From NCBI GenBank assembly GCA_002780135.1, contig PEWA01000052.1, forward strand, positions 1 through 31,780: DNA of 31,780 bases, given 5' to 3'. This DNA comes from Candidatus Shapirobacteria bacterium CG06_land_8_20_14_3_00_40_12. GTDB lineage: Bacteria > Patescibacteriota > Microgenomatia > UBA12405. Below, in pieces: positions 3,463 to 15,277 of the stretch; position 1 is the stretch's first letter; every line of letters starts with the position of its first letter. The notes beneath the pieces were generated by a model that did not search any database, was not told the DNA's origin, and worked only from the letters and a program-made list of their open reading frames with translations. Both the position numbers and the translations under genes were made by a program.

Positions 3463-4549
3463 TAGGTGAGTATAACAAGGAGAGGTGTCGTTTTTCTATG
3501 TTTCTGACCAATCCAGCGGCAATAAAAAGAGTTAATAGGGATGAGCCACCGTAGGAAATAAAAGGGAAAGGGATGCCTGTTAGGGGAATTAGGGAGACAA
3601 TGGCGGAAAAATTTATTAGGGCCTGATATGAAAGCCAACAGGCAAATCCGGAAACTAATAGTTTTTCGAAGGGTTTGATGACAACTTTGGCCAACTTAAA
3701 AAGATAAACAACCAGGGATATGAAAAGGAAAATAAGACCACTTAGGCCTATAAATCCGGTTTCTTCTCCAACAATAGCCAAAATTGAGTCGGTACTGATC
3801 TTGGGTAAAAACTTATATTTTTGGTCGGAATTAGCAATTCCTTTTCCAGACCAACCGCCGGAGGCCAGAGAGATGATTATTTGTTGACGGTGATAGTTTT
3901 GGTTGGGATTTTCTTCCTGATTAAGAAGAGTTTTAAATCTGGCCAGTCGATAAGGTGAGAAAATAACCAGACCAATTCCTAAAACAAAAAATATAAGAAA
4001 AGTTAAAAAAAGGGGAAAGTTGGGACCACCTGAAAGATAATAGATAGAAAAAACAATGGCACCGATAAGAATGGCAGTGCTAAGATTAGGCTCAAAAACA
4101 ATTAGGGTAAAGGCAGGAATAAGAAAAAGAAAAAGGTTTTTGAAGGTTGATTGTTTGGGGTCGGCAAAAAGAGCGGAAAAAAATATAACCGAGATGAGTT
4201 TAAATATCTCAGACGGCTGAATATTTATGGGTCCAAGATCAAACCATCGTCTGGCACCAAGAACTTTTACTCCTAAACCAGGAATAAGAACTGCAATTAA
4301 TAATATGATCGAAAAAAGGTAGAAGTAAAATGAATATTTACGGAAAAATTCGAGATTTAAAACCGATGAGATTAGAAATAAAAGAAAGCCGATACCAACC
4401 CATAAGGCTTGTTTACGAAGGAAGAAAAAGGGGTCACCCTGACTGGCCTGGGCTTCGAAAAGCGATGAAACAGAAATAAAAAGTAACCCGATTATTACCA
4501 GTGAAGAAATGTAAAATAGAAGGGGAGAGCCGGGTTTAATCTTGCTCAT
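3407..4549 (-). CDS. ftsW: SEDS peptidoglycan glycosyltransferase FtsW
   Basis: Multi-TM; GARRWFDLG, IQPSEIFK, EPNLST, YRLARF, QIIISLASGGWSGKG, TDSILAIVGEETG, GIPFPFISYGGSSL. Start moved to ATG 4549 (MSKIKP), which overlaps the ATP-grasp stop; dcw position before murG favours FtsW over RodA. Confidence 0.9.
   Translation of the reverse strand: MSKIKPGSPLLFYISSLVIIGLLFISVSSLFEAQASQGDPFFFLRKQALWVGIGFLLFLISSVLNLEFFRKYSFYFYLFSIILLIAVLIPGLGVKVLGARRWFDLGPINIQPSEIFKLISVIFFSALFADPKQSTFKNLFLFLIPAFTLIVFEPNLSTAILIGAIVFSIYYLSGGPNFPLFLTFLIFFVLGIGLVIFSPYRLARFKTLLNQEENPNQNYHRQQIIISLASGGWSGKGIANSDQKYKFLPKISTDSILAIVGEETGFIGLSGLIFLFISLVVYLFKLAKVVIKPFEKLLVSGFACWLSYQALINFSAIVSLIPLTGIPFPFISYGGSSLLTLFIAAGLVRNIEKRHLSLLYSPNANLKKNRFNRHSPHSRH
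3469..3477 (-). promoter_or_regulatory. Putative extended -10 promoter TGTTATACT, 6 nt upstream of murG ATG, inside the ftsW 3' end
   Basis: - strand reads TG-T-TATACT-CACCTA-ATG. Confidence 0.55.
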
Positions 4550-5648
4550 TATGGAGATGTTTAAATATGGATGAATTAATTGATAGTGAAGATAATTGAT
4601 GACAAAAGATTTTAAAGTCATGATACTTTTTGGTGGTGACACAGAGATGGTTTTTTTGAGTAATTTCAGAACCGATTAAATGAGGATTACTGAAGCGATC
4701 TTCATCTGTTAGGTCGTTGATTTTGTCTGGGGCACAAAATTCCAAAAGGTGATAGAAAAAAAGTGGATTAAGATTGTTTTTAGTTTCAATGTCGGTGTAA
4801 AAGGCAAATGATGCAGTCAGGCGGGGATTACATTCCAAAAGGTACGCCTTATTTGAAGAGACCAAAAAGTCCAGTCCGAAAAAACCACGATAATTATAAG
4901 ATTTTAGGATTTTGGCAAAGTCGGAAGTGATTTTTTTAACCTTAGAAATGATTTTTGGAGAAGCTAAGGAGGGCCATTGGCGGCCAACGGTGGAAAAGGG
5001 ATTATCAGTTAAGGAGGGAATGCCGGTGTATTGAAGGGCCGGAGGGCTTTGAAGGAGGCCGCGGGTAGTCAAGCAACAGTTATTAAGCAGGGTGTAACCT
5101 TTTAGATTGGGAGAGATTTTAACCGGTGTGTGGCGGGGAATGATATTAAAAATAGTTTTTAAATCTTTGATCAAGTGAGTGCTGTTGCCGGCCCACCCAT
5201 GATGAGTTTGGATGACAAAAGGAAGGCTAAATTTTTTTGAGGCAACTGAGAGAAGTTTGGGTTCAAGTTGTCCGATGATAAAAGGAACCAAGGGTATGGA
5301 ATGTTTGGCAACGAGGGGAGAGAATTTAATTTTGTCTTCAAAAAGTCGATTAAGCGATGACAGATTACTAACCCTTATCCAGTTGTTTTTTTTACACATA
5401 AGATCGATTTTTGGTAGAGGTTTGAAGGGTATAATAGCCGCCCGATGGCCGGATTTAGTAGTGGTTTTTCGAATAAAATCGAGGGTTTCCGGTTGTGATA
5501 ACAAATAGCCACTATTTTTTACAGAGAGTTGGGGATTAAAAATGGGATAAAAATTAGAAAGACGGGGAAGATTGATATTTAAATACTTATCGACAACCAA
5601 AAAGAAAAAGTCGACTGGCAATTCCGACAAAGTTTTTTCTAAATTCAT
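4536..5648 (-). CDS. ATP-grasp amino-acid/peptide ligase, substrate unknown
   Basis: FEDKIKF, PFVIQTHHGWAGNST (Gly-rich loop), YRGFFGLDFL, YLLECNPRLTAS (E-x-N-x-R). ATGA overlap with upstream PLP gene; 14-nt overlap with ftsW start. Not Ddl-like in overall motif set. Confidence 0.8.
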   Translation of the reverse strand: MNLEKTLSELPVDFFFLVVDKYLNINLPRLSNFYPIFNPQLSVKNSGYLLSQPETLDFIRKTTTKSGHRAAIIPFKPLPKIDLMCKKNNWIRVSNLSSLNRLFEDKIKFSPLVAKHSIPLVPFIIGQLEPKLLSVASKKFSLPFVIQTHHGWAGNSTHLIKDLKTIFNIIPRHTPVKISPNLKGYTLLNNCCLTTRGLLQSPPALQYTGIPSLTDNPFSTVGRQWPSLASPKIISKVKKITSDFAKILKSYNYRGFFGLDFLVSSNKAYLLECNPRLTASFAFYTDIETKNNLNPLFFYHLLEFCAPDKINDLTDEDRFSNPHLIGSEITQKNHLCVTTKKYHDFKIFCHQLSSLSINSSIFKHLHNEQD

Positions 5649-6445
5649 CTTTTGGCTCCGGTCAATAAAATAACCGGGAAAGCACCAAGATTTTGAGTAT
5701 TGGCTATTTTTTGGTAACCGGCCAAAGTCAGGGCGCCCTCAAGGGAAGTTATTATTTGATTTTTATCAAGATAGTTCTGGGCGTTTAAAACGGCCTGATT
5801 CTGAACGACGACTCCCCCACCCCCACTTTGATTAATAGCCAGAAGAACTTGATTTTTCAGGGGTAAATATTTAACACCCAAAGCGTCAGTCAGATTATCG
5901 GTTTCAGGGATGAAATTTTGGTCGAAGGATGAGGCAATGGGGCAGAAACTGGCCGGCTGAACGGCATAGATTTTAACGTTTGAAGGCAGGCCCTGAGAGA
6001 TTCCCAAAAGGGTAGTACCACTGCCAACCGGAATGAATAGACTAGTGATTTCCGACAGCTGTTTTAATAATTCAAAACCGATTTGTTGATAGCCTAAAAG
6101 GGCAATGGGATCAGTAGATTGTCTAAGAAAATAAGCGTGGTTGGTTTTGGAAAATTTAATGGCGTCACTAATCGGTCGAGAGGATACAGTGAACGGATAA
6201 AGAAGTTTTAGTTTGGCTTTGGAGACATGGGGGGAAACAAAGATGTTTAAAGGGATTTTTGAAAGTTGGCAGTAATGTTGGGCAGAAATGGCGGCATTAC
6301 CGGTTGAGGAGATAACCGCGGATTTGAAGTTTTTAGTAATCAAATTTTGAATTTGAAGCGAAATAGCTCTGTCTTTGGCGGAACCGGTGGGATTTTGATC
6401 TTCCCTTTTAAAATAGACTGAATTGTTTTTTAGAAGAGGTGTCAT
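5645..6445 (-). CDS. PLP-dependent fold-type II enzyme (threonine synthase/cysteine synthase/serine racemase-like)
   Basis: KREDQNPTGSAKDR (PLP lysine), SSTGNAAIS, IPVGSGTTL phosphate loop, ILLTG. Short (266 aa); no thrA/thrB in the window. Confidence 0.85.
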   Translation of the reverse strand: MTPLLKNNSVYFKREDQNPTGSAKDRAISLQIQNLITKNFKSAVISSTGNAAISAQHYCQLSKIPLNIFVSPHVSKAKLKLLYPFTVSSRPISDAIKFSKTNHAYFLRQSTDPIALLGYQQIGFELLKQLSEITSLFIPVGSGTTLLGISQGLPSNVKIYAVQPASFCPIASSFDQNFIPETDNLTDALGVKYLPLKNQVLLAINQSGGGGVVVQNQAVLNAQNYLDKNQIITSLEGALTLAGYQKIANTQNLGAFPVILLTGAKR

Positions 6446-6476
6446 ATAATAGACTATTACATTTTAATATATAAAG
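6446..6476. promoter_or_regulatory. 31-bp divergent intergenic region with back-to-back putative -10 elements and a 13-bp palindrome
   Basis: + strand TAATAT (6465-6470) 6 nt before ATG 6477; - strand TAGTCT (6451-6456) 5 nt before ATG 6445; TAATAG-A-CTATTA palindrome 6447-6459. Confidence 0.45.
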
Positions 6477-6632
6477 ATGGAAAAAGTAATTTGTCCTGAT
6501 TGTCAGGTAGAAATAATAAGCAGTAATCCAATGGTGGTTGGAGACATTTTAGAATGTAGTGAATGCGGAACAGAAGTGGAAATTATTTCTTTGACTCCAC
6601 TGAAGTACCAGGTATTGATTGAAGAGAAGTAA
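6477..6632 (+). CDS. LysW-like Cys4 zinc-ribbon small protein (51 aa), not in the ORF track
   Basis: Hand translation: MEKVICPDCQVEIISSNPMVVGDILECSECGTEVEIISLTPLKYQVLIEEK*. CPxC...GxIxxCxxCGxExEIxSLxPL matches the LysW pattern but ends in EEK, not EDWGE. -10-like hexamer 6 nt upstream. Confidence 0.8.
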   Translation: MEKVICPDCQVEIISSNPMVVGDILECSECGTEVEIISLTPLKYQVLIEEK

Positions 6633-7167
6633 GTCGGTAGACACCATCAATTTTAATGTTTGGTTGGGAAAGGAAAAAGGTAGATATTTTAACCCCATGG
6701 CCATCACGGCGACTGTCAACGAAGGTAACAGTATCACCGAGTCGATTAATTATAAAGAGGATATGGCGACCGTTTTTTTGTCGAATGAGATCACCGGTAC
6801 GAATATTGTCGAGCTTAATAGCGGTTGAGAGAGGCGAAGAAGTTAGGTGGTTGGCAGAGGTTTTTCGGGGATCAAGCGAGAGTGAGAAGTAGAAATTCAA
6901 TAACTGACAAGCCAGGCCAGAACAGTCAATACCAATATGATGTTTTTTTTGGAAGTTATAGATTTGGACAGTGGTCAAATTAGGTAATTTAATGTTTTCC
7001 TGATTGGCAATTTCAAGAGTGGTTTGAGCGATGTCGTGGGCGGAACCTTTACCTACCAGAGCATTATTGGTAGAAATGTTTTTATGTATTCCTTGGTTGC
7101 AGAAATAAGGAAGATTTTGATATTTATTAACTTCCTTAATAAGAAGATCTAATTTAGTCCCAGCCAT
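6583..7167 (-). CDS. NlpC/P60-family cysteine peptidase (no obvious signal peptide)
   Basis: GIDCSGL catalytic Cys motif (6917-6928), TGDLI, GRHILFI (His), FVDS (possible Asp). Start set to ATG 7167, which overlaps the mraY stop; the 3' end overlaps the antisense LysW-like gene by 50 nt. Confidence 0.75.
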   Translation of the reverse strand: MAGTKLDLLIKEVNKYQNLPYFCNQGIHKNISTNNALVGKGSAHDIAQTTLEIANQENIKLPNLTTVQIYNFQKKHHIGIDCSGLACQLLNFYFSLSLDPRKTSANHLTSSPLSTAIKLDNIRTGDLIRQKNGRHILFIINRLGDTVTFVDSRRDGHGVKISTFFLSQPNIKIDGVYRLTSLQSIPGTSVESKK

Positions 7168-8183
7168 AGGCCAAAGATTGCTAATATAATAGTAGCTAGC
7201 CAAGCCCGGAAGACGATCTTTGGTTCTTCCCAACCAATTTTTTGCAGAGTGAGATGTATCGGAGCTGCAGGGAAAACTCTTTTCTTAAAATAAATTTTGG
7301 AAACCATTTGAATAGCGCTGCTTAGGCCTTCAACAATAAAAGGAAGACCAACAATGATAAGAGGTACAATTTTACCTAAAAGCAGAGCGATAACAGCAAA
7401 AGTGGCCCCAAAGGAAAGTGAGCCGACATCACCCAACCAGATGCGGGCAGGAAAGATATTAAAATAAAGGAAGGCAATTAAGGCTCCAATCCAGAGTGAA
7501 ATAAAAAGAGAGATGGGGGTGTCCATAGAAGAACCAGCTAGAATCCAAAAAGCAAAAAGGGAAATCATGAGGATGCCACCGGACAGACCATCGAGACCAT
7601 CACTAATATTAAAGAAATTGGCAAACGAGGTGATAATGACGGCGGAAATGGGAATAAAAAAAAGTCCAAGATTGATGGCACCAATAAATGGCAAGTAAAT
7701 AAAATTAATCCCCAAACGGAAAAACATTAAGGAAGAAGCGATAACGGCTAATAGTATTTGAAGAAATAATTTGTATTTTAAACGTAGGCCGAAGAATCCG
7801 GATTTTTTAAAACCAAAAAATTTAAAAATATCATCATAGAGTCCAAGGATGCCGAAACTAATAAAAGTAAAAAAGATGACTTCAATTTCGTGATTGAGCC
7901 GGAAATTGCTGGAAATAAATATTCGGGAGAATGTTAAAATAGGAAAAAGGAAGGAAAAAAGAATAACCACGGATAAGATAATTAACAATCCCCCGCCGAC
8001 AGGAGTACCGGATTTATCATGGTGAAATTTATCAAAAATAGGGGTCCGGTGATTTTGAAAATCAAGAGTTTTTTGGCAACGTCGTTGAAATTTTAGGCGG
8101 TAAAGAATATTGATAAAGGGAATGACTAAAATACTGGTAGTAAAAAAGGAGAATAGGAGAAGGCCGAGGTAAAGATGTGCCAT
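7149..8183 (-). CDS. mraY: Phospho-MurNAc-peptide translocase MraY
   Basis: KSGTPVGGG, GLYDD, NISDGLDGL, NIFPARIWLGDVGS, APIHLTLQKIGWEEPKIVFRAW. ATG 8183 chosen; TTG 8192 is an alternative start. Confidence 0.92.
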   Translation of the reverse strand: MAHLYLGLLLFSFFTTSILVIPFINILYRLKFQRRCQKTLDFQNHRTPIFDKFHHDKSGTPVGGGLLIILSVVILFSFLFPILTFSRIFISSNFRLNHEIEVIFFTFISFGILGLYDDIFKFFGFKKSGFFGLRLKYKLFLQILLAVIASSLMFFRLGINFIYLPFIGAINLGLFFIPISAVIITSFANFFNISDGLDGLSGGILMISLFAFWILAGSSMDTPISLFISLWIGALIAFLYFNIFPARIWLGDVGSLSFGATFAVIALLLGKIVPLIIVGLPFIVEGLSSAIQMVSKIYFKKRVFPAAPIHLTLQKIGWEEPKIVFRAWLATIILAIFGLWLGLN

Positions 8184-8188
8184 GGTTT

Positions 8189-9517
8189 TCAAGTTTTAAT
8201 ATACTCTATTTGGGCTCCTAATGATTTAAGACGGTCAGCTAATTTTTCATAACCCCGTTCGATGTATTCAACATTGTCAACAATTGAGATACCGGTGGCA
8301 GTTAAGGCAGCCAGGGTGGTTGAGGCGCCGGCCCGCAGATCATTGATGACAAATTTGGCTGGTTTAAGTTTTACCGGACCGTAGATTTTAACCCCATGGA
8401 AATATTGAGGGCTATCGTTTTGAGGGTTGAATTCATAGTAAGATTTTGGATTAGTAACGATTGGATTAAAATATTTGACCTTTAGGCCCATTTTTTCCAG
8501 GTTGGTAATATGTTGGAAGCGGGAGGGATAAACCCGTTCGATAATTGAGCTGACACCAACAGCCTGGGTTAGGAGAACGGAAAATACGGTTTGCCAGTCA
8601 GTCATAAAGAAGGGTTCCGGACCGGTTTCAATGTTGATAGATTTTAAAGGTTTATCCCAAGATACAGTAACTTCGTCCTTGCCGGAAACAATTTTTGCTC
8701 CCATAGTAGAAAGAGTTTCTAAAAATGTCGTAATAATTTTAGGGTCGGTACGAAGAATGTTAATTGAGCCTTTAGTTAGTAGGGCGGCGCAGGCAAAAGT
8801 GACGGTTTCATTGCGGTCGGCGATAACCTGATGAGTGGTTCCTCTCAAGCTATCAACACCGTCAATGATAATGGTTTGAGAAAGTTTGGGATCACGATAA
8901 ATCCTGGCTCCCATGGAGTTAAGCATGACAATCAGATCGTCGATTTCAGGTTCAAGGGAAGAATTGTTTAGGATAGTTTGTCCTTTGACAAGAGTAGAGA
9001 TCATTATTAGTACTTCGGTGACAGTGTGGGAAGGTTTTGGAAAAGAAAAAACAGTTGGTTTGATTTTTGAGGCGGAAAAATGAATAGTGTCATCAGTAAT
9101 TTTGGTGGTGATTCCCATTTTATGGAAACATTCAAAAAGACGATCCAAAGGGCGGGCTCCGAGTTTGTCGCCACCGGGAGTGGGTATAGTGGCCACACCT
9201 GTTCGTAAAAGTAAAGGGGCGGCAAACATAAATGAAGCCCTGGATTTTTCACCGGTGCCATGGGGTACGGTGGAGGAAAAAAGTTTTTTGGTAGTAATTT
9301 CCAGGGAATGTTCGCCGATAGGTGAAATTTGACTACCGAGACTTTCAGCAATACTTTGGGTAATTTTTACATCTGATATTTGGGGTATATTTGAAAGCTG
9401 GGTTGTTTTATCGCTTAACATGGAAGCAATAATTTGTTTAAAACTGGCATTTTTGGCACCACGAATAGATACTTCTCCACAAAGAGTTTTGCCGCCGGTT
9501 ATGATGTAACGGGACAT
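8189..9517 (-). CDS. murA: UDP-GlcNAc 1-carboxyvinyltransferase MurA (Cys-to-Asp active-site variant)
   Basis: GAKNA, SRAS, PGGDKLGARP, EPEIDDL, DRNE, TDWQ, IERVYPSRF, DLRAGA, IERGYE. Confidence 0.95.
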   Translation of the reverse strand: MSRYIITGGKTLCGEVSIRGAKNASFKQIIASMLSDKTTQLSNIPQISDVKITQSIAESLGSQISPIGEHSLEITTKKLFSSTVPHGTGEKSRASFMFAAPLLLRTGVATIPTPGGDKLGARPLDRLFECFHKMGITTKITDDTIHFSASKIKPTVFSFPKPSHTVTEVLIMISTLVKGQTILNNSSLEPEIDDLIVMLNSMGARIYRDPKLSQTIIIDGVDSLRGTTHQVIADRNETVTFACAALLTKGSINILRTDPKIITTFLETLSTMGAKIVSGKDEVTVSWDKPLKSINIETGPEPFFMTDWQTVFSVLLTQAVGVSSIIERVYPSRFQHITNLEKMGLKVKYFNPIVTNPKSYYEFNPQNDSPQYFHGVKIYGPVKLKPAKFVINDLRAGASTTLAALTATGISIVDNVEYIERGYEKLADRLKSLGAQIEYIKT

Positions 9518-9522
9518 AGTAG

Positions 9523-10833
9523 TTAATTTTTAATTTTTAATTTATAATTTTTAATTATTTGTTTGAAGGTTTTTAAACCGGTTAAACCTCCGGAACTAAA
9601 GTGAACCAAAACATGGCCGGGGTTAAGAGACGACAAAACTGAATTTTTAAGATCGGAGTAAATGGGCAGATAATTAAGTTTAGCACCAAGATGGAATTTG
9701 TAATCGAAGGAGGTGGTTCGGACTGATTTGGGGAGATTGGAAGTAAAAGAAAGTTTACCTAGAAACACCTTAGCGGCCGGCCCAAAAGAGTCAGCAACTT
9801 TCCCCAGCGAGGATTTATATTGAAGGAAACTAGCTTGGGCTTCAAAAATTACCAGAATAGTTTTTCCGGGATGAAGTTTTTCGAGAGCCAAAAGACTTAC
9901 TTTAATACGGTGAGGTGACTGGGCAAAATCATCGTAGAAATAAGTATTTTTTACGATTGATGTTAATTCAAGCCGGCGTTTGATTCCTTTAAAACTTTGC
10001 AGGTTAGTTTTAAAAAATTTTTGACTTATTCCTAAATTAGTACAAAGAGTATGACAGGCAGCCAAATTGTTTTGATTATGGTGGCCAAAGAGAAAGGGAT
10101 GTTGGTGGTGGTATAGGGAGTAGTCAACACACTTACATTGAGCATATTTAATCAGAGATTTTATTGAGGGATCCTCTGAGTTGTAAATCAGGAGACCTTC
10201 AGGGGGGAGACGTTTAATTAAATTAATAAAACTGAGTCGATTTTCAGATTCACTTTTGTATGAGTCGCGATGCTCCCAGGAGGACGAGGTAAGAACTAAA
10301 TATTTTATTGGGTAGTAAAGGAATTTAGCCTGAGTGTCTAAACCGTTTATAGATTCATCAGCCTCAACTATCGACCAATCGGATTGAGCAAACTTAAGCG
10401 AGGGGAAATGATTCAAACATTGGCCGCCAATAAAATAGGAAGGATTGAGCTTGCTTTTGGTTAAAATCCAGGCCAGAACAGCGGAAATGGTAGTTTTACC
10501 GTAGCTTCCGGCAACCAGGATGCTATTTTTATTAATTAATTTAGTAGCGAGATATTGAGTGGCAGAGATGTAAGGAATTTTCTGGCTTTGGAAAAAACGA
10601 AACTCAACTTGTGTATTTTTGAATTTTTTATAGGCAGAGCCAACGATAACCAGATCGGGAGAGATAGAATCAAGTTTGGGGTTAATCGAAATATGAGCTC
10701 GGTGAAGAATTTGGCTAAAAGGAGGATAAATATGGTTTTGATCGCTGCCGGTAACGGTGTGTCCACTTTTTTTTAAAGCTAGAGCCAGAGGAGTGGTCAT
10801 AGTGCCGCTAATTGCCAAAATATGAATTTTCAT
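9523..10833 (-). CDS. Mur ligase of MurC/Mpl type, closer to Mpl (murein peptide ligase) by motif recall
   Basis: MKIHILAISGT, GSDQNHIYPPFS, PDLVIVG, VAGSYGKTT, FIGG, VEADE, KFLYY, GIKRRLE, YDDFAQSP, SSGG all parallel E. coli Mpl segments. Start set to ATG 10833 (ATGA overlap, GGAGG 5 nt upstream). Confidence 0.8.
   Translation of the reverse strand: MKIHILAISGTMTTPLALALKKSGHTVTGSDQNHIYPPFSQILHRAHISINPKLDSISPDLVIVGSAYKKFKNTQVEFRFFQSQKIPYISATQYLATKLINKNSILVAGSYGKTTISAVLAWILTKSKLNPSYFIGGQCLNHFPSLKFAQSDWSIVEADESINGLDTQAKFLYYPIKYLVLTSSSWEHRDSYKSESENRLSFINLIKRLPPEGLLIYNSEDPSIKSLIKYAQCKCVDYSLYHHQHPFLFGHHNQNNLAACHTLCTNLGISQKFFKTNLQSFKGIKRRLELTSIVKNTYFYDDFAQSPHRIKVSLLALEKLHPGKTILVIFEAQASFLQYKSSLGKVADSFGPAAKVFLGKLSFTSNLPKSVRTTSFDYKFHLGAKLNYLPIYSDLKNSVLSSLNPGHVLVHFSSGGLTGLKTFKQIIKNYKLKIKN
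9524..9559. repeat. Tandem heptamer (AATTTTT)n tract, copy 2 (5 units)
   Basis: aattttt-aattttt-aatttat-aattttt-aattatt from 9525; encodes the C-terminal NYKLKIKN of the Mpl-like ligase. Confidence 0.7.
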
Positions 10834-11423
10834 AATTGCCTCCATTGATTTTGGGAAAAATATTCGAATCCAGGCATGTTCCTTTTATAGTATCCAATAC
10901 CCCGAACCTTTGCCTCGAAGCGGCCAAGATAACAATATTGTAATTTTTGTTGGTGGCTGTCAATGATTACCTGAAGGGTGAGGCGAATAGGGAGATTTGT
11001 TTTTGAAAGGGAGGGATTATAAAAGACATAAGCAATATGGGAAATGGTCTTTGAAAAATAACAGATAGAGTAAGCTACGACTTGGTTTTGATTATCCCTC
11101 CAAATATAGAGACGATTAAAGATGTGAGTTGAAAATACATATTTAACTGATGACACAGGAAAACTCCATCCAAGTTTCTTGATCCAATTAAAAATGGTTT
11201 TTTGAACATCAAGAGAAAAAGAAAAATTATTAAGAGGAATAACTTCTGAAAAATATTCTGTGGTTTTATTAAGAATCCGACGGTTTTCTGAACTTAGGTT
11301 AAATACAGACAAGTTGGAACGGCAACTGGTTTGAAAATAAAAAAGTTTTTTGGAATTCCGTTGAGGTAACAACCCATTTTGATAGTATTCTTTGATGGTG
11401 GAAAAATTATTTAAATTAAACAT
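10830..11423 (-). CDS. Aminoacyl-tRNA-dependent transferase of ATE1/Bpt type (GNAT-like), 197 aa
   Basis: YYQNG, SCR..L..F.LSSENRRIL.K, then AYVFYNP...TNLPIRLTLQVI...QKLQYCYLG...YYK...FEYF....W, resembling ATE_N/ATE_C segments. Start set to ATG 11423, an 8-nt overlap with the murE stop. Confidence 0.65.
   Translation of the reverse strand: MFNLNNFSTIKEYYQNGLLPQRNSKKLFYFQTSCRSNLSVFNLSSENRRILNKTTEYFSEVIPLNNFSFSLDVQKTIFNWIKKLGWSFPVSSVKYVFSTHIFNRLYIWRDNQNQVVAYSICYFSKTISHIAYVFYNPSLSKTNLPIRLTLQVIIDSHQQKLQYCYLGRFEAKVRGIGYYKRNMPGFEYFSQNQWRQL
10839..10843 (-). promoter_or_regulatory. Shine-Dalgarno-like GGAGG before the Mpl-like gene
   Basis: - strand TGGAGG-CAATT-ATG; the only clear SD I noticed among the starts inspected. 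Confidence 0.4.
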
Positions 11424-12642
11424 TTTGACTATGAGCCCTAAAAGCAGAATTAAAGGCTTCAGTTTCTGACCAGGGGTATTCGGTTTTGCCGTGAAGAATG
11501 GAGGTTTCGTGTCCTTTACCACAGGCGACAATGGTATCACCGGGATTGGCAATTTTAACTGCCAGACTAAAGGCATCTTGGCGGTTAAAAATGTTGTGAT
11601 AAAAAAACTTTTTTTGTTTGAGTTTGAGAGGGCTAAATCCGGAGATTATTTGTTGATTAATATCCTCAACCGATTCAGTGCGAGTATCATCAGCGGTAAC
11701 AATGGCGATATCGCAGTTTTCAGAAACAATTTTTCCCATTATGGGTCGTTTACTTTTATCGCGGCCTCCGGTGGCACCAAAGAGACAAATTAATTTACCG
11801 TGAGAATAAATGTTTTTAAGAGAGGTTAAAGTTTCATAGAGAGCATTGGGGGTGTGGGCAAAGTCAACAATGCAATTTAGCCGTAGATTATTTTTGACTG
11901 TCTCACGTCGTCCTTTGGTTTCAGGGAAATGGCGGACGGAGGCGATAATGGTGTCGGGATTTATTTTTAATTTTTGAGTCAGAGAAATCGCGGCGAGTAA
12001 ATTATATATTTGGTATTTATAAGGAGAGTCAGAGGTGTAAAGTTGCTTATTTAGAACAAAAGATAGAGAATCGGGGGTGATGGTTATATTTTTTGCCTGA
12101 AAATCTGATGGGTTTTTAATGGAATAGGTTGACAGATTTCCTTTTAAAAGTTTTTTTAGTTCCGAAAAATATGAATCATCAGCGTTGAGGATTTTGTACT
12201 TTGATTGGGAAAAGAGACGTGATTTAGCCAGAACGTAATTAGTCATGGAGTGATGATAGTCGAGATGTTCATGTGAAATATTGGTAATAACACCGACCTC
12301 AAAATGACAGCCAAAATAGCGAAATTGATCAAGAGCATGGGAAGTAACTTCGCAAATAACATGAGTGATCCCCTCTTTTTGGTATTGCCTTAGAAGTTGA
12401 AAAAAAGTTTTCGAACTAAAATTACTGGTGGTGTGAAGTCCGGGGCTATTAAGGGTGGTAATTGATTTGGTTTTAAGATGTGCCTCAGTTAAAATCTGAT
12501 ATATAAGATTGCAGGTACTGGTTTTACCGTCAGTTCCGGTTACCCCGATTAAAGTAAGGGATTTTTGGGGAAAACAATAAAAAGATTGCCAAAAAACGGT
12601 TCTCGGCAGATGCCAAAGATAGTTTTTAAGTTTTTGGAACAT
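11416..12642 (-). CDS. murE: MurE-type UDP-MurNAc-peptide ligase (short N-terminus)
   Basis: IGVTGTDGKTST, EVTSHALDQ, TNISHEHLDYH, GRRE, VDFAHTPNAL, FGATGGRDKSKRPIMG, TADDTR, ACGKGHE. Start set to ATG 12642. Confidence 0.88.
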   Translation of the reverse strand: MFQKLKNYLWHLPRTVFWQSFYCFPQKSLTLIGVTGTDGKTSTCNLIYQILTEAHLKTKSITTLNSPGLHTTSNFSSKTFFQLLRQYQKEGITHVICEVTSHALDQFRYFGCHFEVGVITNISHEHLDYHHSMTNYVLAKSRLFSQSKYKILNADDSYFSELKKLLKGNLSTYSIKNPSDFQAKNITITPDSLSFVLNKQLYTSDSPYKYQIYNLLAAISLTQKLKINPDTIIASVRHFPETKGRRETVKNNLRLNCIVDFAHTPNALYETLTSLKNIYSHGKLICLFGATGGRDKSKRPIMGKIVSENCDIAIVTADDTRTESVEDINQQIISGFSPLKLKQKKFFYHNIFNRQDAFSLAVKIANPGDTIVACGKGHETSILHGKTEYPWSETEAFNSAFRAHSQNV

Positions 12643-12673
12643 AAGGGGTGATTTATTATAACAAAGGGGTGAT
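12643..12673 (-). promoter_or_regulatory. Putative internal promoter for murE: extended -10 TGTTATAAT flanked by two 10-bp direct repeats
   Basis: - strand ATCACCCCTT-TGTTATAAT-AA-ATCACCCCTT-ATG; repeats at 12643-12652 and 12664-12673 (21-bp period). Confidence 0.55.
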
Positions 12674-14221
12674 CTTGGAAGCGATTTCAAACCAAACTGG
12701 GGCGGCGGTGGACGAACCCCAAGTTGAGAGTTGGGGCTTATTAAAAATAATAATCATGGAGAATTTGGGATTCTGGCAGGGGGAAAATCCAACATAAGAG
12801 GCGATGGTATCAGTGTCGGCATACTGGCCACTTTTAGCAATTTGAGCAGTGCCGCTTTTGGCACAAACTTCAATATTTTTTGGTTTTAAACTGCTAACAG
12901 CACCAGTTTCGACAGCATATTTGAGAATATTAACTACTTTATCGACGGTATCAGGGGCAAACACCGTACTTTCAGATAAGGGATTATTGAGATTAAAATG
13001 GGGAGAAACTAATTTTCCACCATTACCGAGAGTGTTGAAAGCCCGAAGCATTTGTAGTTCGTTGACAGCAAAACCCTGGCCAAAAGATGCGGTCGCCAAA
13101 TCAATATCAGACCAATATTTTTTTAAGGAAGAAGTTGATTCACCCAGTAGATCGACATTGGTTTTTTGATTAAGTCCCAAGAGGTGAAAATAACGCTGAA
13201 AGGAAGTTAAACCAAGTTTTTCAATAATATAACTCATAGCAATGTTGTCAGAGTTTTTGATGACATCAGGGAGATTTGAATTAGGGTGGGTTTTTTCGTT
13301 CCAATTATTTATAGTATATTGGCCATAGGTACGAGGTTTACCACAAACCGGACAAACAAAATCGAGTCCAATGCTATTTTCGTTTAAAGCCATAGATAGA
13401 ACCAGGGGTTTAAAAATTGAACCAGGTTCAAATAGGTAAGATATGGGTCGAAGAGATGAGCTTTGGGTAGAATTTTGAGGGACAGAGCTGATGGCGATTA
13501 TTTCACCACTTTGAGGATTAATTATAATGCCGGTAGCATTTTCAGCTTGAAAACGTTTTAGGCCAAGTTCAAGAGATGAGGCTAATATAGATTGAACTTG
13601 TCGGTTAAGACTGAGGGGAATGTCGGTACCATCGACTTCACTTTTGTGCCAGTTTTTGCGACTTAATATTAATTGTCCGGTAGCATCGACCGGGGCGACA
13701 GAAAAACCCACCTTTCCCGAAAGAGTTCGTTTATAAAAACTTTCGAGATTTAATAAAACATCTTTGGCTAAATTACCTTCCGGGTAATATCTTGACGAAA
13801 CCTCTTCGAAACTGACACCGGCTAAATCTATTTTTTTTACGTCTTGGCTGTAAAACTTGGTGGGTAGGGTGACCCACTTGATATTGGGTTTAAGAAAGAA
13901 TCCAATTTGTTTTTCGGATTCCAATTTAAGACCAGGTTTTATTTTTTCCAGATAGAGAAGAACATCCTCAAGTTTTCGATCAAGATTGGGTTTATAAAGT
14001 GACAAAAGATAAAAACGGGAATCAAGACTTAAGGGAAATGAGTCAGAAGCGAGAAGGTGGCCCAGATTAGGTAAAATTTTTGTTTGTTGATATATTTGGT
14101 TTAAACTACGGTTTCGGACTGTTTGCCCCAGATATATTTGCCAGTAAAAGAGGCGGAGAACGACAATTACAAAAGAAAAAATAATTGTAGTTTTTAGTAT
14201 AGATATTCGGTTGTTACTCAT
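12656..14221 (-). CDS. ftsI: Class B penicillin-binding protein (FtsI/PBP3-like)
   Basis: N-terminal TM anchor with LRLFYWQI, RYYPEG, transpeptidase motifs EPGSIFK (SxxK), SDN (SxN), KSGTAQ. Start set to ATG 14221, overlapping the ftsL stop. Confidence 0.88.
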   Translation of the reverse strand: MSNNRISILKTTIIFSFVIVVLRLFYWQIYLGQTVRNRSLNQIYQQTKILPNLGHLLASDSFPLSLDSRFYLLSLYKPNLDRKLEDVLLYLEKIKPGLKLESEKQIGFFLKPNIKWVTLPTKFYSQDVKKIDLAGVSFEEVSSRYYPEGNLAKDVLLNLESFYKRTLSGKVGFSVAPVDATGQLILSRKNWHKSEVDGTDIPLSLNRQVQSILASSLELGLKRFQAENATGIIINPQSGEIIAISSVPQNSTQSSSLRPISYLFEPGSIFKPLVLSMALNENSIGLDFVCPVCGKPRTYGQYTINNWNEKTHPNSNLPDVIKNSDNIAMSYIIEKLGLTSFQRYFHLLGLNQKTNVDLLGESTSSLKKYWSDIDLATASFGQGFAVNELQMLRAFNTLGNGGKLVSPHFNLNNPLSESTVFAPDTVDKVVNILKYAVETGAVSSLKPKNIEVCAKSGTAQIAKSGQYADTDTIASYVGFSPCQNPKFSMIIIFNKPQLSTWGSSTAAPVWFEIASKITPLL

Positions 14222-14411
14222 GAAATAAAGTGAATTTTTGGACATATTTTTGTTCCAGATTTTGGTTTAGATCTAGAAATTCCCGATATTTTTTTTGAAG
14301 CGCGGAAAAGTCGTGACTGAGTTTGACAATTTGACTGGAGTAGAAAAAAGAAAATAATAGTTGAAAGATGACTAGACTGATAGTGGCTGATAAAAGCAAT
14401 TGAGCGGGCAT
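14214..14411 (-). CDS. ftsL: FtsL-like small membrane/coiled-coil protein (65 aa)
   Basis: Single TM followed by heptad-like segment, located between rsmH and ftsI and coupled to both; call rests mostly on position. Confidence 0.55.
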   Translation of the reverse strand: MPAQLLLSATISLVIFQLLFSFFYSSQIVKLSHDFSALQKKYREFLDLNQNLEQKYVQKFTLFHE

Positions 14412-15277
14412 CAGTTAATAGTATAAGACCTTAGGTGGGCTGACCGGGAAAGGGGGTTTGTTGATACTTCATCCATTGAAGGGGACAGCCTTTGGGATTT
14501 TAGGCCAGAATTTCGTAAAAAGTTTTTTACCAAACGATCTTCTCCGGAGTGAAAGGTAATGACTATAACCCGTCCTTTGGGTTTAACTATTTTGAGGGAA
14601 ATCTCGAGGGCTTTATTTAAATTTTTTAATTCATTATTAACGGTAATTCGGAGGGCTAAAAATATTTTTGTAGCCGGGTCGTGGGGGCAAGTTACTTTTC
14701 TATCTTTATAGAAAGAACGAATAATTTCGGCCAATCTTAATCCTGATTTGATAGGTTCCTGTTGCCGGCGATTAATAATTTTTTGAGCCAGGGGTCGGCT
14801 ATATCTTTCCTGAGAGATTTTGGAAAAAATATCAAACAAGTCCTCTTCGGAAGCCGTGTTTATTATATTTTCGGCAGTAAGGTGTTGATGAATCGGATCA
14901 AGTCTCATGTCCAGGGAAAATTGATCGTTGAAAGAAAAACCACGATTTTGGGAAAGCTGTTGGGAATTACTTAAACCCAAATCAAAGAGAAGACCGTCGA
15001 GAGGTTGATTGATGTTTTTTTTCCAGATACTTTTTAATCGGGAGAAGTTTCCTTTTAAGGGGTGAAAATTGGTAGATAAATTAAGATCAGTAATTCTTTT
15101 GGTGGCTAAAACCAAGTTATTGCTATCAGCGTCAAGACCAAAAACGGTAGCTCCCGATTTGAGGAGTGGAATAGTGTGACCACCGTGACCAAGGGTGGCA
15201 TCGAAGTAAACTTGATTTTTTTGGGGGTCAAAAAGCCTGATCACTTCATCAAGAAGAATGGGCTGGTGATACTTCAT
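14411..15277 (-). CDS. rsmH: 16S rRNA m4C1402 methyltransferase RsmH (MraW)
   Basis: YHQPILLDE, DATLGHGGHT, FDLGLS, RGFSF, LDMRLD, HDPATKIFLALRI, ITFHSGEDRLVK, NPLSRSAHLR. Confidence 0.96.
   Translation of the reverse strand: MKYHQPILLDEVIRLFDPQKNQVYFDATLGHGGHTIPLLKSGATVFGLDADSNNLVLATKRITDLNLSTNFHPLKGNFSRLKSIWKKNINQPLDGLLFDLGLSNSQQLSQNRGFSFNDQFSLDMRLDPIHQHLTAENIINTASEEDLFDIFSKISQERYSRPLAQKIINRRQQEPIKSGLRLAEIIRSFYKDRKVTCPHDPATKIFLALRITVNNELKNLNKALEISLKIVKPKGRVIVITFHSGEDRLVKNFLRNSGLKSQRLSPSMDEVSTNPLSRSAHLRSYTIN

Follow-up and report, generated by a model that had tools for sequence, protein, structure and literature searches.

A lysine-tailed LysW-family protein encoded with a PLP enzyme and an ATP-grasp ligase in the cell-wall gene cluster of CPR bacteria

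The carrier gene and its surroundings

The window, by which we mean the whole 31,780-nt stretch of DNA analysed here, contains part of a dcw cluster. On its plus strand, positions 6477–6632 form an open reading frame of 51 codons without internal stop, whose translated product has two CxxC pairs and ends in Glu-Glu-Lys. We refer to this LysW-family product as the carrier and to its gene as the carrier gene. The features of the locus are as follows.

4536–5648, minus strand: ATP-grasp ligase, 370 aa, overlapping the stop of the PLP gene and the start of ftsW; assigned from profile matches and a model
5645–6445, minus strand: fold-type II PLP enzyme, 266 aa, threonine-synthase-like without the N-terminal domain, the obligate neighbour of the carrier (Pfam PALP, 1e-40)
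6446–6476, no strand: 31-nt spacer between the divergent starts of the carrier and PLP genes, presumably a shared control region; this divergent adjacency occurs in every locus examined
6477–6632, plus strand: LysW-family carrier gene (51 aa, Lys-ended; stop codon 6630–6632), assigned from the ORF, Pfam PF21344, the alignment with 3WWL, conservation and purifying selection
6492–6503, plus strand: zinc-ribbon CxxC pair 1 (Cys6, Cys9), invariant across the 39-sequence alignment A1
6555–6566, plus strand: zinc-ribbon CxxC pair 2 (Cys27, Cys30), invariant across the same alignment
6621–6629, plus strand: tail Glu49-Glu50-Lys51, with Lys51 the proposed functional handle; distant lineages keep the terminal Lys alone
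6583–7233, minus strand: NlpC/P60-like cysteine peptidase whose gene converges on the carrier gene; it matches Pfam NLPC_P60 weakly (21 bits, cut-off 23) and is, in this lineage, a candidate for the release step
7149–12690, minus strand: context genes for MraY, MurA, a MurC/Mpl-like ligase, an ATE_C-like transferase and MurE, assigned from profile matches

The coordinates bear out the arrangement given in the original prediction, in which the 51-aa ORF diverges from the PLP gene and shares its final 50 nt with the 3′ end of the NlpC/P60-like ORF (stop at 6583); the true start of the latter is probably the ATG at 7167. The same prediction had described the carrier gene as hidden, as the sole plus-strand gene and as embedded antisense in the cluster. 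The full-length ORF is real, but a 33-aa record that begins at Met19 exists for the source genome (P0112), so the gene has probably been called short rather than missed. The first CPDC motif lies upstream of Met19 and is conserved, which places the true start at or near 6477. Every plus-strand ORF of at least 90 aa in the window sits inside a minus-strand gene and there are no tRNAs, consistent with a single plus-strand gene. To call it embedded antisense, on the other hand, is an overstatement: the gene fills its own gap, and its convergent overlap with the downstream gene varies among 77 relatives (median 18 nt, mostly from none to ~50 nt; apparent values in a few loci reach up to 146 nt). 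That the overlap serves antisense control, as was also suggested at the time, has little in its favour, as the length of the overlap is not conserved and the downstream gene in other lineages is MurD or MraY.

A word-indexed search returned 125 homologues at E ≤ 0.01; the 120 matches listed were ~59–90% identical to the carrier, and nearly all were 50–55 aa long and ended in [IV]EEK. Overall, the homologues number in the hundreds. A one-genome-per-species scan yielded 80 loci, labelled mostly as Shapirobacteria, Woesebacteria or Microgenomates. In these 80 species-level genomes the order ATP-grasp (minus), PLP enzyme (minus), carrier (plus), NlpC-like (minus), MraY (minus) was kept wherever the contig was long enough. 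The tail was EEK in 77 of 79 carriers from these close species, and the NlpC-like gene adjoined the carrier gene in 77 of the 80. Across the 80 loci the carrier was also the best conserved of the products, with a median identity of 67% compared with 57% for the PLP enzyme and 49% for both the ATP-grasp and the NlpC-like protein. Over the last 30 codons we observed 0.08–0.17 non-synonymous differences per site and 0.66–1.0 synonymous differences per site, the latter saturated. Judged by this pattern of substitution, the carrier ORF is a real gene under strong purifying selection.

A LysW relative with a lysine tail

The carrier matched the Pfam family Zn_ribbon_LysW (PF21344) with 36 bits against a cut-off of 27. 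Thermus LysW (PDB 3WWL) aligned to carrier residues 5–50 with E = 4.3e-7, and a further match was obtained to 5K2M (E = 3e-4). The NCBIfam LysW equivalog cut-offs were not reached (TIGR01206, 31.6 vs 53.2; NF041070, 23.9 vs 75). The alignment with 3WWL stops at Glu47-Glu48 of Thermus LysW, and the EDWGE motif is absent from the carrier, which ends in LIEEK. These results agree with the earlier assignment of the protein to the LysW family with a non-canonical tail.

In LysW, the gamma-carboxyl group of the terminal Glu of the EDWGE tail takes the amino group of the cargo. The amino-group carrier proteins LysW and ArgW of Thermus, Sulfolobus and Thermococcus (3WWL, 5K2M) share with the present carrier a zinc-ribbon domain, small size, a very acidic composition and genes for an ATP-grasp ligase and a PLP enzyme alongside. 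The pairing of an acidic carrier with basic enzymes is likewise the same as in LysW systems, the predicted pI being 4.05 for the carrier and 9.5–9.6 for both partner enzymes. They differ in the tail, which here is five residues shorter and ends in Lys whereas theirs is EDWGE and ends in Glu, and in the partners, which here are a BC/PurK-like ATP-grasp and a fold-type II ThrC-like enzyme whereas those of LysW are LysX (RimK-type) and LysJ (fold type I). They also differ in location, the present gene lying in the dcw cluster and those for LysW and ArgW in a Lys or Arg operon. Since the EDWGE tail with its terminal Glu is missing and so, for the LysX, LysZ and LysJ types sought, are the LysX/Z/Y/J/K partners, we do not class the protein as LysW, despite its membership of the superfamily by fold and sequence. 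The sulfur carriers CysO and ThiS are a different matter again, being beta-grasp proteins with a C-terminal Gly-Gly where the present protein is a zinc ribbon with a Glu-Glu-Lys end.

Short relatives in a representative library clustered at 50% identity included 31 with an EEK or EEEK end and 10 with a WGE end. In the phylum sample described below, the tails of the subfamily were EEK, EEEK, NEEK, DEEK, LVEK, MIEK, YVQK, MIQK, MVQK, NLGK and DEGK. Across divergent relatives, the sole constant of the tail is the terminal Lys. In the VQK, IQK and LGK lineages the final three residues do not include Glu, which makes a Glu side chain, one of the tethers first proposed, an unlikely handle. The pattern points instead to the terminal Lys, which may act through its epsilon-amine or be recognised together with its free carboxylate. 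On these sequence grounds we treat the Lys-ended LysW-family proteins as a distinct subfamily. An EEEK end is not always found in the context described here: P0202, a LysW-like protein with this tail, adjoins a MarR gene on a short contig. An internal control is provided by genome G047, in which an EDWG-type LysW is flanked by RimK-type ligases and not by the present set of genes.

Distribution of the module and its enzymes

We searched a sample of 251 genomes of the phylum with the 39-member carrier alignment A1. The carrier was found in ~31 of these genomes, comprising 25 genomes of 11 GTDB families with good matches and weaker variants in families f27 and f102 and in one more genome of f66. 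The module of carrier, PLP enzyme and ATP-grasp was always located in the dcw cluster, upstream of ftsW-murG, and two types of cluster could be distinguished. In type I (f48, f29, f28 and L010), the carrier gene has a true MurD gene as an immediate neighbour (260 bits, cut-off 212). Type II clusters (the window, f66, f42, f27 and f102) encode an ATE_C-like transferase, a MurC/Mpl-like ligase that scores alike as MurC (176 bits) and as Mpl (174 bits), and the NlpC/P60-like protein, and we did not detect a MurD match in them. In the type I lineages no NlpC-like gene was found within ~±8 kb of the module, save for a weak match in L010; in lineages other than that of the window, the gene either occupies another place in the cluster or gave no match in the regions fetched.

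A search for glutamate racemase (MurI) detected it in 1 of the 31 genomes with the carrier, compared with 102 of the other 220 (103 of 251 overall), and when only clear carrier cases are counted the figure is 1 of 25 (Fisher p = 2e-5, uncorrected for relatedness). The background tallies include genome G154 as a single count. Module and MurI do occur together in one genome (G122). In family f48 the sole member without the module, G142, carries MurI together with a MurD of high score, and the MurD of the four module-bearing members is divergent. Because ~45% of the sampled MurD-positive, module-less genomes are also without MurI, and because relatives are not independent, we consider the anticorrelation between module and MurI suggestive only. 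The source genome (762 kb, 93% complete) encodes Alr, Ddl and three Mur ligases, namely MurE, the MurC/Mpl-like ligase and one on contig C17 beside Ddl and Alr; MurI, MurD and a D-amino-acid aminotransferase were not found in it at this completeness. Within carrier lineages, MurD is missing only in the window's sub-type, type II. A role for the module as a general replacement of MurD is ruled out by the type I clusters, with their true MurD beside the carrier gene.

The tightest partner of the carrier is the PLP enzyme, rather than the ATP-grasp. A search of the 251 genomes with alignment A3 gave PLP enzyme matches of at least ~87 bits solely in the ~30 genomes that have a Lys-tailed carrier. 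The two genes were adjacent and divergent in all fetched loci where the contig allowed this to be seen, including loci in which carrier identity had fallen to 43–48%, and the divergent pair is retained in the f27/f102 arrangement, where the ATP-grasp gene is five genes away. Co-occurrence of the pair spans at least 12 GTDB families and three gene orders. It is extremely unlikely, in our estimate, that the protein is a small zinc ribbon with an unrelated role, such as nucleic-acid binding or regulation of the dcw operon, whose position is kept by the bidirectional promoter alone. Zinc ribbons are common among regulators and the carrier gene does diverge from the head of an operon, but an unrelated role would account neither for exclusive co-occurrence with one PLP subfamily over this range of families and gene orders, nor for the invariant C-terminal residue, nor for homology that is specific to LysW and not to generic ribbons.

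The ATP-grasp was in the carrier's cluster in all carrier genomes where the contig allowed, except G025, in which the sole match lies on another contig. Homologous ATP-grasps also occur without the carrier module (f17, G013, G133 and G057). Its model had a pLDDT of 94, and the nearest structures were PurK, biotin carboxylase, PurD and PurT (Z 23–25); LysX and RimK were absent from the best 50 structural neighbours. The profile search likewise gave no RimK or LysX match, the best NCBIfam entry being PRK06524 'biotin carboxylase' with 77 bits. In this family of ATP-grasps the usual ATP-binding Lys is an invariant Gln. D-Ala-D-Ala ligase was rejected as an identity for the enzyme, since a canonical Ddl (189 bits) is encoded on contig C17 with Alr and the third Mur ligase.

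The original prediction had envisaged a variant carrier serving the adjacent ligase and had noted that a lysX/Y/Z/J/K-like set was missing. For the LysZ and LysJ types the latter holds in the source genome, in which a profile search gave no match to AA_kinase (LysZ-type) or Aminotran_3 (LysJ-type). The former stands in part: the trio of carrier, PLP enzyme and ATP-grasp is conserved in the ~31 of 251 sampled genomes and in the 80 further species, but the ATP-grasp is not LysX-like and the PLP enzyme is the tighter partner. A RimK/LysX-type ligase elsewhere in the genome had been named as the alternative partner. Such ligases occurred in 9 of 31 carrier genomes and in 56 of 220 others, a distribution without association that rules this partner out; the source genome itself has three tandem RimK-family genes on contig C48.

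These results bear on whether the protein could still be an amino-group carrier of a variant kind, with its cargo on the gamma-carboxyl of a tail Glu or on the terminal alpha-carboxyl and with the neighbouring ATP-grasp loading it in the manner of LysX or ArgX. We consider this improbable. Homology to LysW, the two or three Glu residues that precede the Lys in most members and the presence of an ATP-grasp in the cluster (with the exception of G025) would fit such a carrier. The tails without a nearby Glu would not, nor would the BC/PurK-like rather than RimK/LysX-like nature of the ATP-grasp, and the pairing of LysW with RimK-type ligases was seen in the phylum only for the EDWG-type LysW of G047. 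In addition, a fold-type II PLP enzyme needs a free alpha-amino group, so LysW-style cargo, being N-acylated and thus without a free alpha-amine, would be unsuited to the obligate PLP partner.

Possible roles of the terminal lysine

With a high degree of confidence, we conclude that the carrier gene is a real LysW-family gene that is functionally coupled to the PLP enzyme and the ATP-grasp in cell-wall precursor metabolism. In the PLP enzyme, the PLP lysine lies within a TGSAKDR motif and the STGN carboxylate loop is intact. In the ThrC equivalog test its best score was 100 bits where the cut-off is 358, it fell far short of the other equivalog cut-offs as well, and ~65 positions at the start of the profile are missing. 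The nearest folds to its model (pLDDT 93) were ThrC (Z 31.8), serine racemase (31.2) and the PLP-dependent aspartate racemase (31.1), with threonine deaminases and O-acetylserine sulfhydrylases (OASS) about equally near. Also among the structural neighbours were two OASS complexes with partner tails, 5J43, the CdiA-CT-CysK complex, and 5XOQ. The absence of the ThrC N-terminal domain makes an open active site plausible. It is established for fold-type II PLP enzymes that the active site can take up the C-terminal tail of a partner protein, as in CysO-CysM, CysE-CysK and CdiA-CT-CysK. In the mycobacterial CysO-CysM-Mec system, the C-terminus of a small protein enters such an active site and the adduct is then freed by a peptidase. 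CysO, however, is a beta-grasp protein that carries a Gly-Gly thiocarboxylate, the tails of CysE and CdiA end in Ile and are inhibitory, and none of these systems has the zinc ribbon, the terminal Lys or the ATP-grasp that are all present here.

One reading of these likenesses is that the carrier docks its tail non-covalently, so that the Lys-carboxylate end would plug the amino-acid site of the PLP enzyme, as CysE does in CysK and as CdiA-CT does, and would switch the enzyme or scaffold the ATP-grasp. We rate this as rather unlikely. The PLP enzyme is the tightest and sole exclusive partner, partner-tail complexes stand among the fold neighbours of its model, and in CysE-CysK the established hallmark of docking is a final residue that is invariant and has its carboxylate free. 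Docking would nevertheless leave unexplained why a LysW-type fold and an ATP-grasp have been retained together, in parallel with LysW and LysX, and Ile, rather than Lys, is the last residue of the docking tails known. A predicted complex of ATP-grasp, PLP enzyme and carrier, computed with custom alignments, scored 0.01 against a mark of 0.32, a value that weighs on neither side of the question of binding.

A second reading takes the tail as a nucleophile in the manner of CysO. The epsilon-amine of Lys51 would attack an aminoacrylate (or vinylglycine-type) intermediate that the PLP enzyme forms from Ser, phospho-Ser or phospho-homoserine. A diamino-dicarboxylic unit would then be built on the protein (compare SbnA, with its Dap-type product), processed by the ATP-grasp and freed as a cell-wall diamino acid or cross-bridge. 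The PLP enzyme is indeed ThrC/SbnA/OASS-like, and the fold is established to work with nucleophiles that are amines (SbnA) or protein tails (CysO); CPR bacteria, to our knowledge, are generally without Lys/DAP synthesis. We think this reading very unlikely all the same, as no oxidase or lyase that would free the product is conserved in the module, the MurI anticorrelation would go unexplained and we know of no lysinoalanine-type product in peptidoglycan.

The reading that we prefer, and hold tentatively as a possibility, is that the protein is a reusable carrier that acts through its terminal Lys, the amine of which would be loaded by the ATP-grasp with an amino acid via the side-chain carboxyl group. 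The polarity would then be reversed with respect to LysW, the carrier offering the epsilon-amine of a Lys and not the gamma-carboxyl of a Glu. ATP-grasp enzymes form an acyl phosphate and pass it to an amine, so the side-chain carboxyl of Glu (or Asp) could be joined to Lys51 by the chemistry of the superfamily. A free amino acid, most likely L-Glu, would be activated by the ATP-grasp at its side-chain carboxyl (the gamma-carboxyl in the case of L-Glu) and joined to Lys51 as an amide, and the tethered cargo would retain a free alpha-amino acid head for the PLP enzyme. This enzyme would convert the tethered cargo, most likely by racemisation to D-Glu. With MurI lacking, the most economical proposal for the cargo is Glu that is racemised to D-Glu on its tether; that the cargo is in fact Glu and is converted to D-Glu we regard as doubtful. 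The product would supply position 2 of the peptidoglycan stem peptide, either used while still tethered or freed by a peptidase specific for gamma-D-glutamyl bonds, for which the NlpC/P60-like neighbour would be a candidate in this lineage. NlpC/P60 family members typically cleave gamma-D-Glu-diamino-acid bonds, and this preference makes a cytoplasmic NlpC/P60-like protein a plausible release enzyme here.

Several considerations count against the Lys-carrier reading. Its logic is not forced, because PLP-dependent racemases work without ATP and without a carrier. The nearest folds to the ATP-grasp model are carboxylases and not peptide ligases, and an invariant Gln takes the place of the Lys that binds ATP in most ATP-grasps. 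Finally, the type I lineages have no NlpC-like gene nearby, which leaves the release step in those lineages unexplained.

Two known systems resemble parts of the Lys-carrier scheme. In Xanthomonas, which belongs to the bacteria that manage without MurI, MurD2 and MurL provide for epimerisation of Glu on UDP-MurNAc-L-Ala. This too is an ATP-consuming alternative route to D-Glu at stem position 2 in which Glu is epimerised while tethered, but Glu is tethered to UDP-MurNAc-L-Ala, epimerisation does not depend on PLP and a carrier protein is lacking. Aslfm of Enterococcus faecium is an ATP-grasp D-aspartate ligase encoded with an aspartate racemase. Here the likeness is that an ATP-grasp links a D-amino acid, through its side-chain carboxyl, to the epsilon-amine of a Lys during synthesis of a cell-wall precursor, with a racemase alongside; the differences are that the acceptor is the Lys of UDP-MurNAc-pentapeptide, that the racemase is PLP-independent and that a carrier protein is again absent.

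The scheme can be extended to a 'carboxyl-group carrier protein' that prepares stem position 2 and so forms a protein-templated substitute for MurI plus MurC/MurD, a version we offer as a long shot. The first step would attach L-Glu, through its gamma-carboxyl, to the terminal Lys at the epsilon-amine; a C-terminal Lys bearing Glu in this manner would be isosteric with gamma-D-Glu-meso-DAP minus one carboxylate. The PLP enzyme would then racemise the tethered Glu, and in MurD-less lineages, including that of the window, the ATE_C-like aminoacyl-tRNA transferase would add L-Ala. The Mpl-like ligase would couple this mimic of a 'tripeptide' to UDP-MurNAc, and the cytoplasmic NlpC/P60-like gamma-D-Glu endopeptidase would release UDP-MurNAc-L-Ala-D-Glu for MurE and allow the carrier to be recycled.

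Taken together, the findings suggest that CPR bacteria with the module make cell-wall precursors by way of a hitherto undescribed step on a carrier protein. A literature search found no account of a Lys-tailed LysW subfamily or of a carrier-dependent route to D-Glu, and a Protein Atlas look-up returned LysW-named clusters only. In the databases some homologues are labelled 'lysine biosynthesis protein LysW'; the carrier gene is thus annotated under this name, or truncated or missed, in organisms without a lysine pathway, and metabolic reconstructions are misled by the label. The carrier, the PLP enzyme and the ATP-grasp are all small, soluble proteins, which makes the question directly testable. 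LysW-type carriers are known to us only from lysine, arginine and a few natural-product pathways, always with the cargo on the terminal Glu. The Lys-tailed branch would have the opposite chemical handle, tied to a PLP enzyme and an ATP-grasp in the cell-wall cluster. If true as proposed, carrier-protein chemistry would be extended to peptidoglycan precursor synthesis. It may then explain how many CPR/Patescibacteria, mainly Microgenomates (Shapirobacteria, Woesebacteria), obtain D-glutamate without MurI, and in some of these lineages may also explain life without MurD.

Module genes: active-site residues and reading frames

At residue 147 of the ATP-grasp (window 4536-5648), a position normally occupied in this enzyme superfamily by the Lys that binds ATP, we found an invariant Gln within the motif V-x-Q-T-H-x-G-W-A-G-N-S. 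The Mg-binding E-x-N motif is intact. The carrier is on record from the same genome as a 33-aa form that begins at Met19 (P0112, window 6531-6632), and the recorded gene call probably uses an internal start. In three genomes of family f66, the match to the threonine-synthase-like PLP gene crosses one in-frame stop each (TGA or TAA), which may reflect a frameshift, recoding or bridging by the alignment.

PLP-gene matches with one in-frame stop (genome:contig:position)
G110:C32:18442-19281, PLP-gene match with one in-frame stop
G088:C46:16226-17071, PLP-gene match with one in-frame stop
G219:C13:4171-5007, PLP-gene match with one in-frame stop

Mur ligases and the type II cell-wall cluster

Only three Mur ligases were found in the genome of the window: MurE, a MurC/Mpl-like ligase that scores equally as both, and one encoded on contig C17. 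Neither MurD nor MurI was detected in the whole genome. The genes for MurE and the MurC/Mpl-like ligase flank that of the ATE_C-like transferase.

Window 7149-12690, Mur-ligase/ATE_C-like gene region

This type II cluster was found again in families f66, f42, f27 and f102. A single module-bearing genome, G122, has a MurI match (C58:2548-3198, 149 bits). Its assembly is 78%-complete and in 140 contigs, so this match could stem from contamination or from recent transfer, or the two routes could genuinely overlap there. The Shapirobacteria-type dcw cluster was also seen in many records titled "uncultured Gammaproteobacteria bacterium" (L073, L076, L077 and ~40 other loci), and this batch of submissions appears to be mislabelled as to organism.

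LysW-like ribbons and RimK-family ligases outside the module

P0202 (locus L153), a LysW-like protein with an EEEEK end, comes from a short contig where its neighbour is a MarR-type regulator and not a dcw cluster; EEK-tailed ribbons are not all part of the module. Two or more LysW-like ribbons occur in tandem in P0130, P0128, P0133 and similar proteins, among them a 103-aa example with two ribbons and an EEEK end.

The genome of the window carries a tandem set of RimK-family genes on another contig.

C48:3263-6844 (L155:1264-4845), three tandem RimK-family ATP-grasp genes

One is alpha-L-glutamate-ligase-like (TIGR02291, 248 bits), the other two are RimK-family members, and two unannotated, membrane-looking ORFs follow. 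The distribution of RimK-family genes of this type is unrelated to that of the carrier. One CPR genome (G047), whose dcw ATP-grasp (L069) lies on a separate contig from its LysW, encodes a canonical-type LysW ending in AEDWGQ (L062, contig C63, genome coordinates 8370-8483) with RimK-type ligases around it (6569-7132, 7496-8020 and 14116-14679). An ordinary AmCP system is therefore also present in the phylum.
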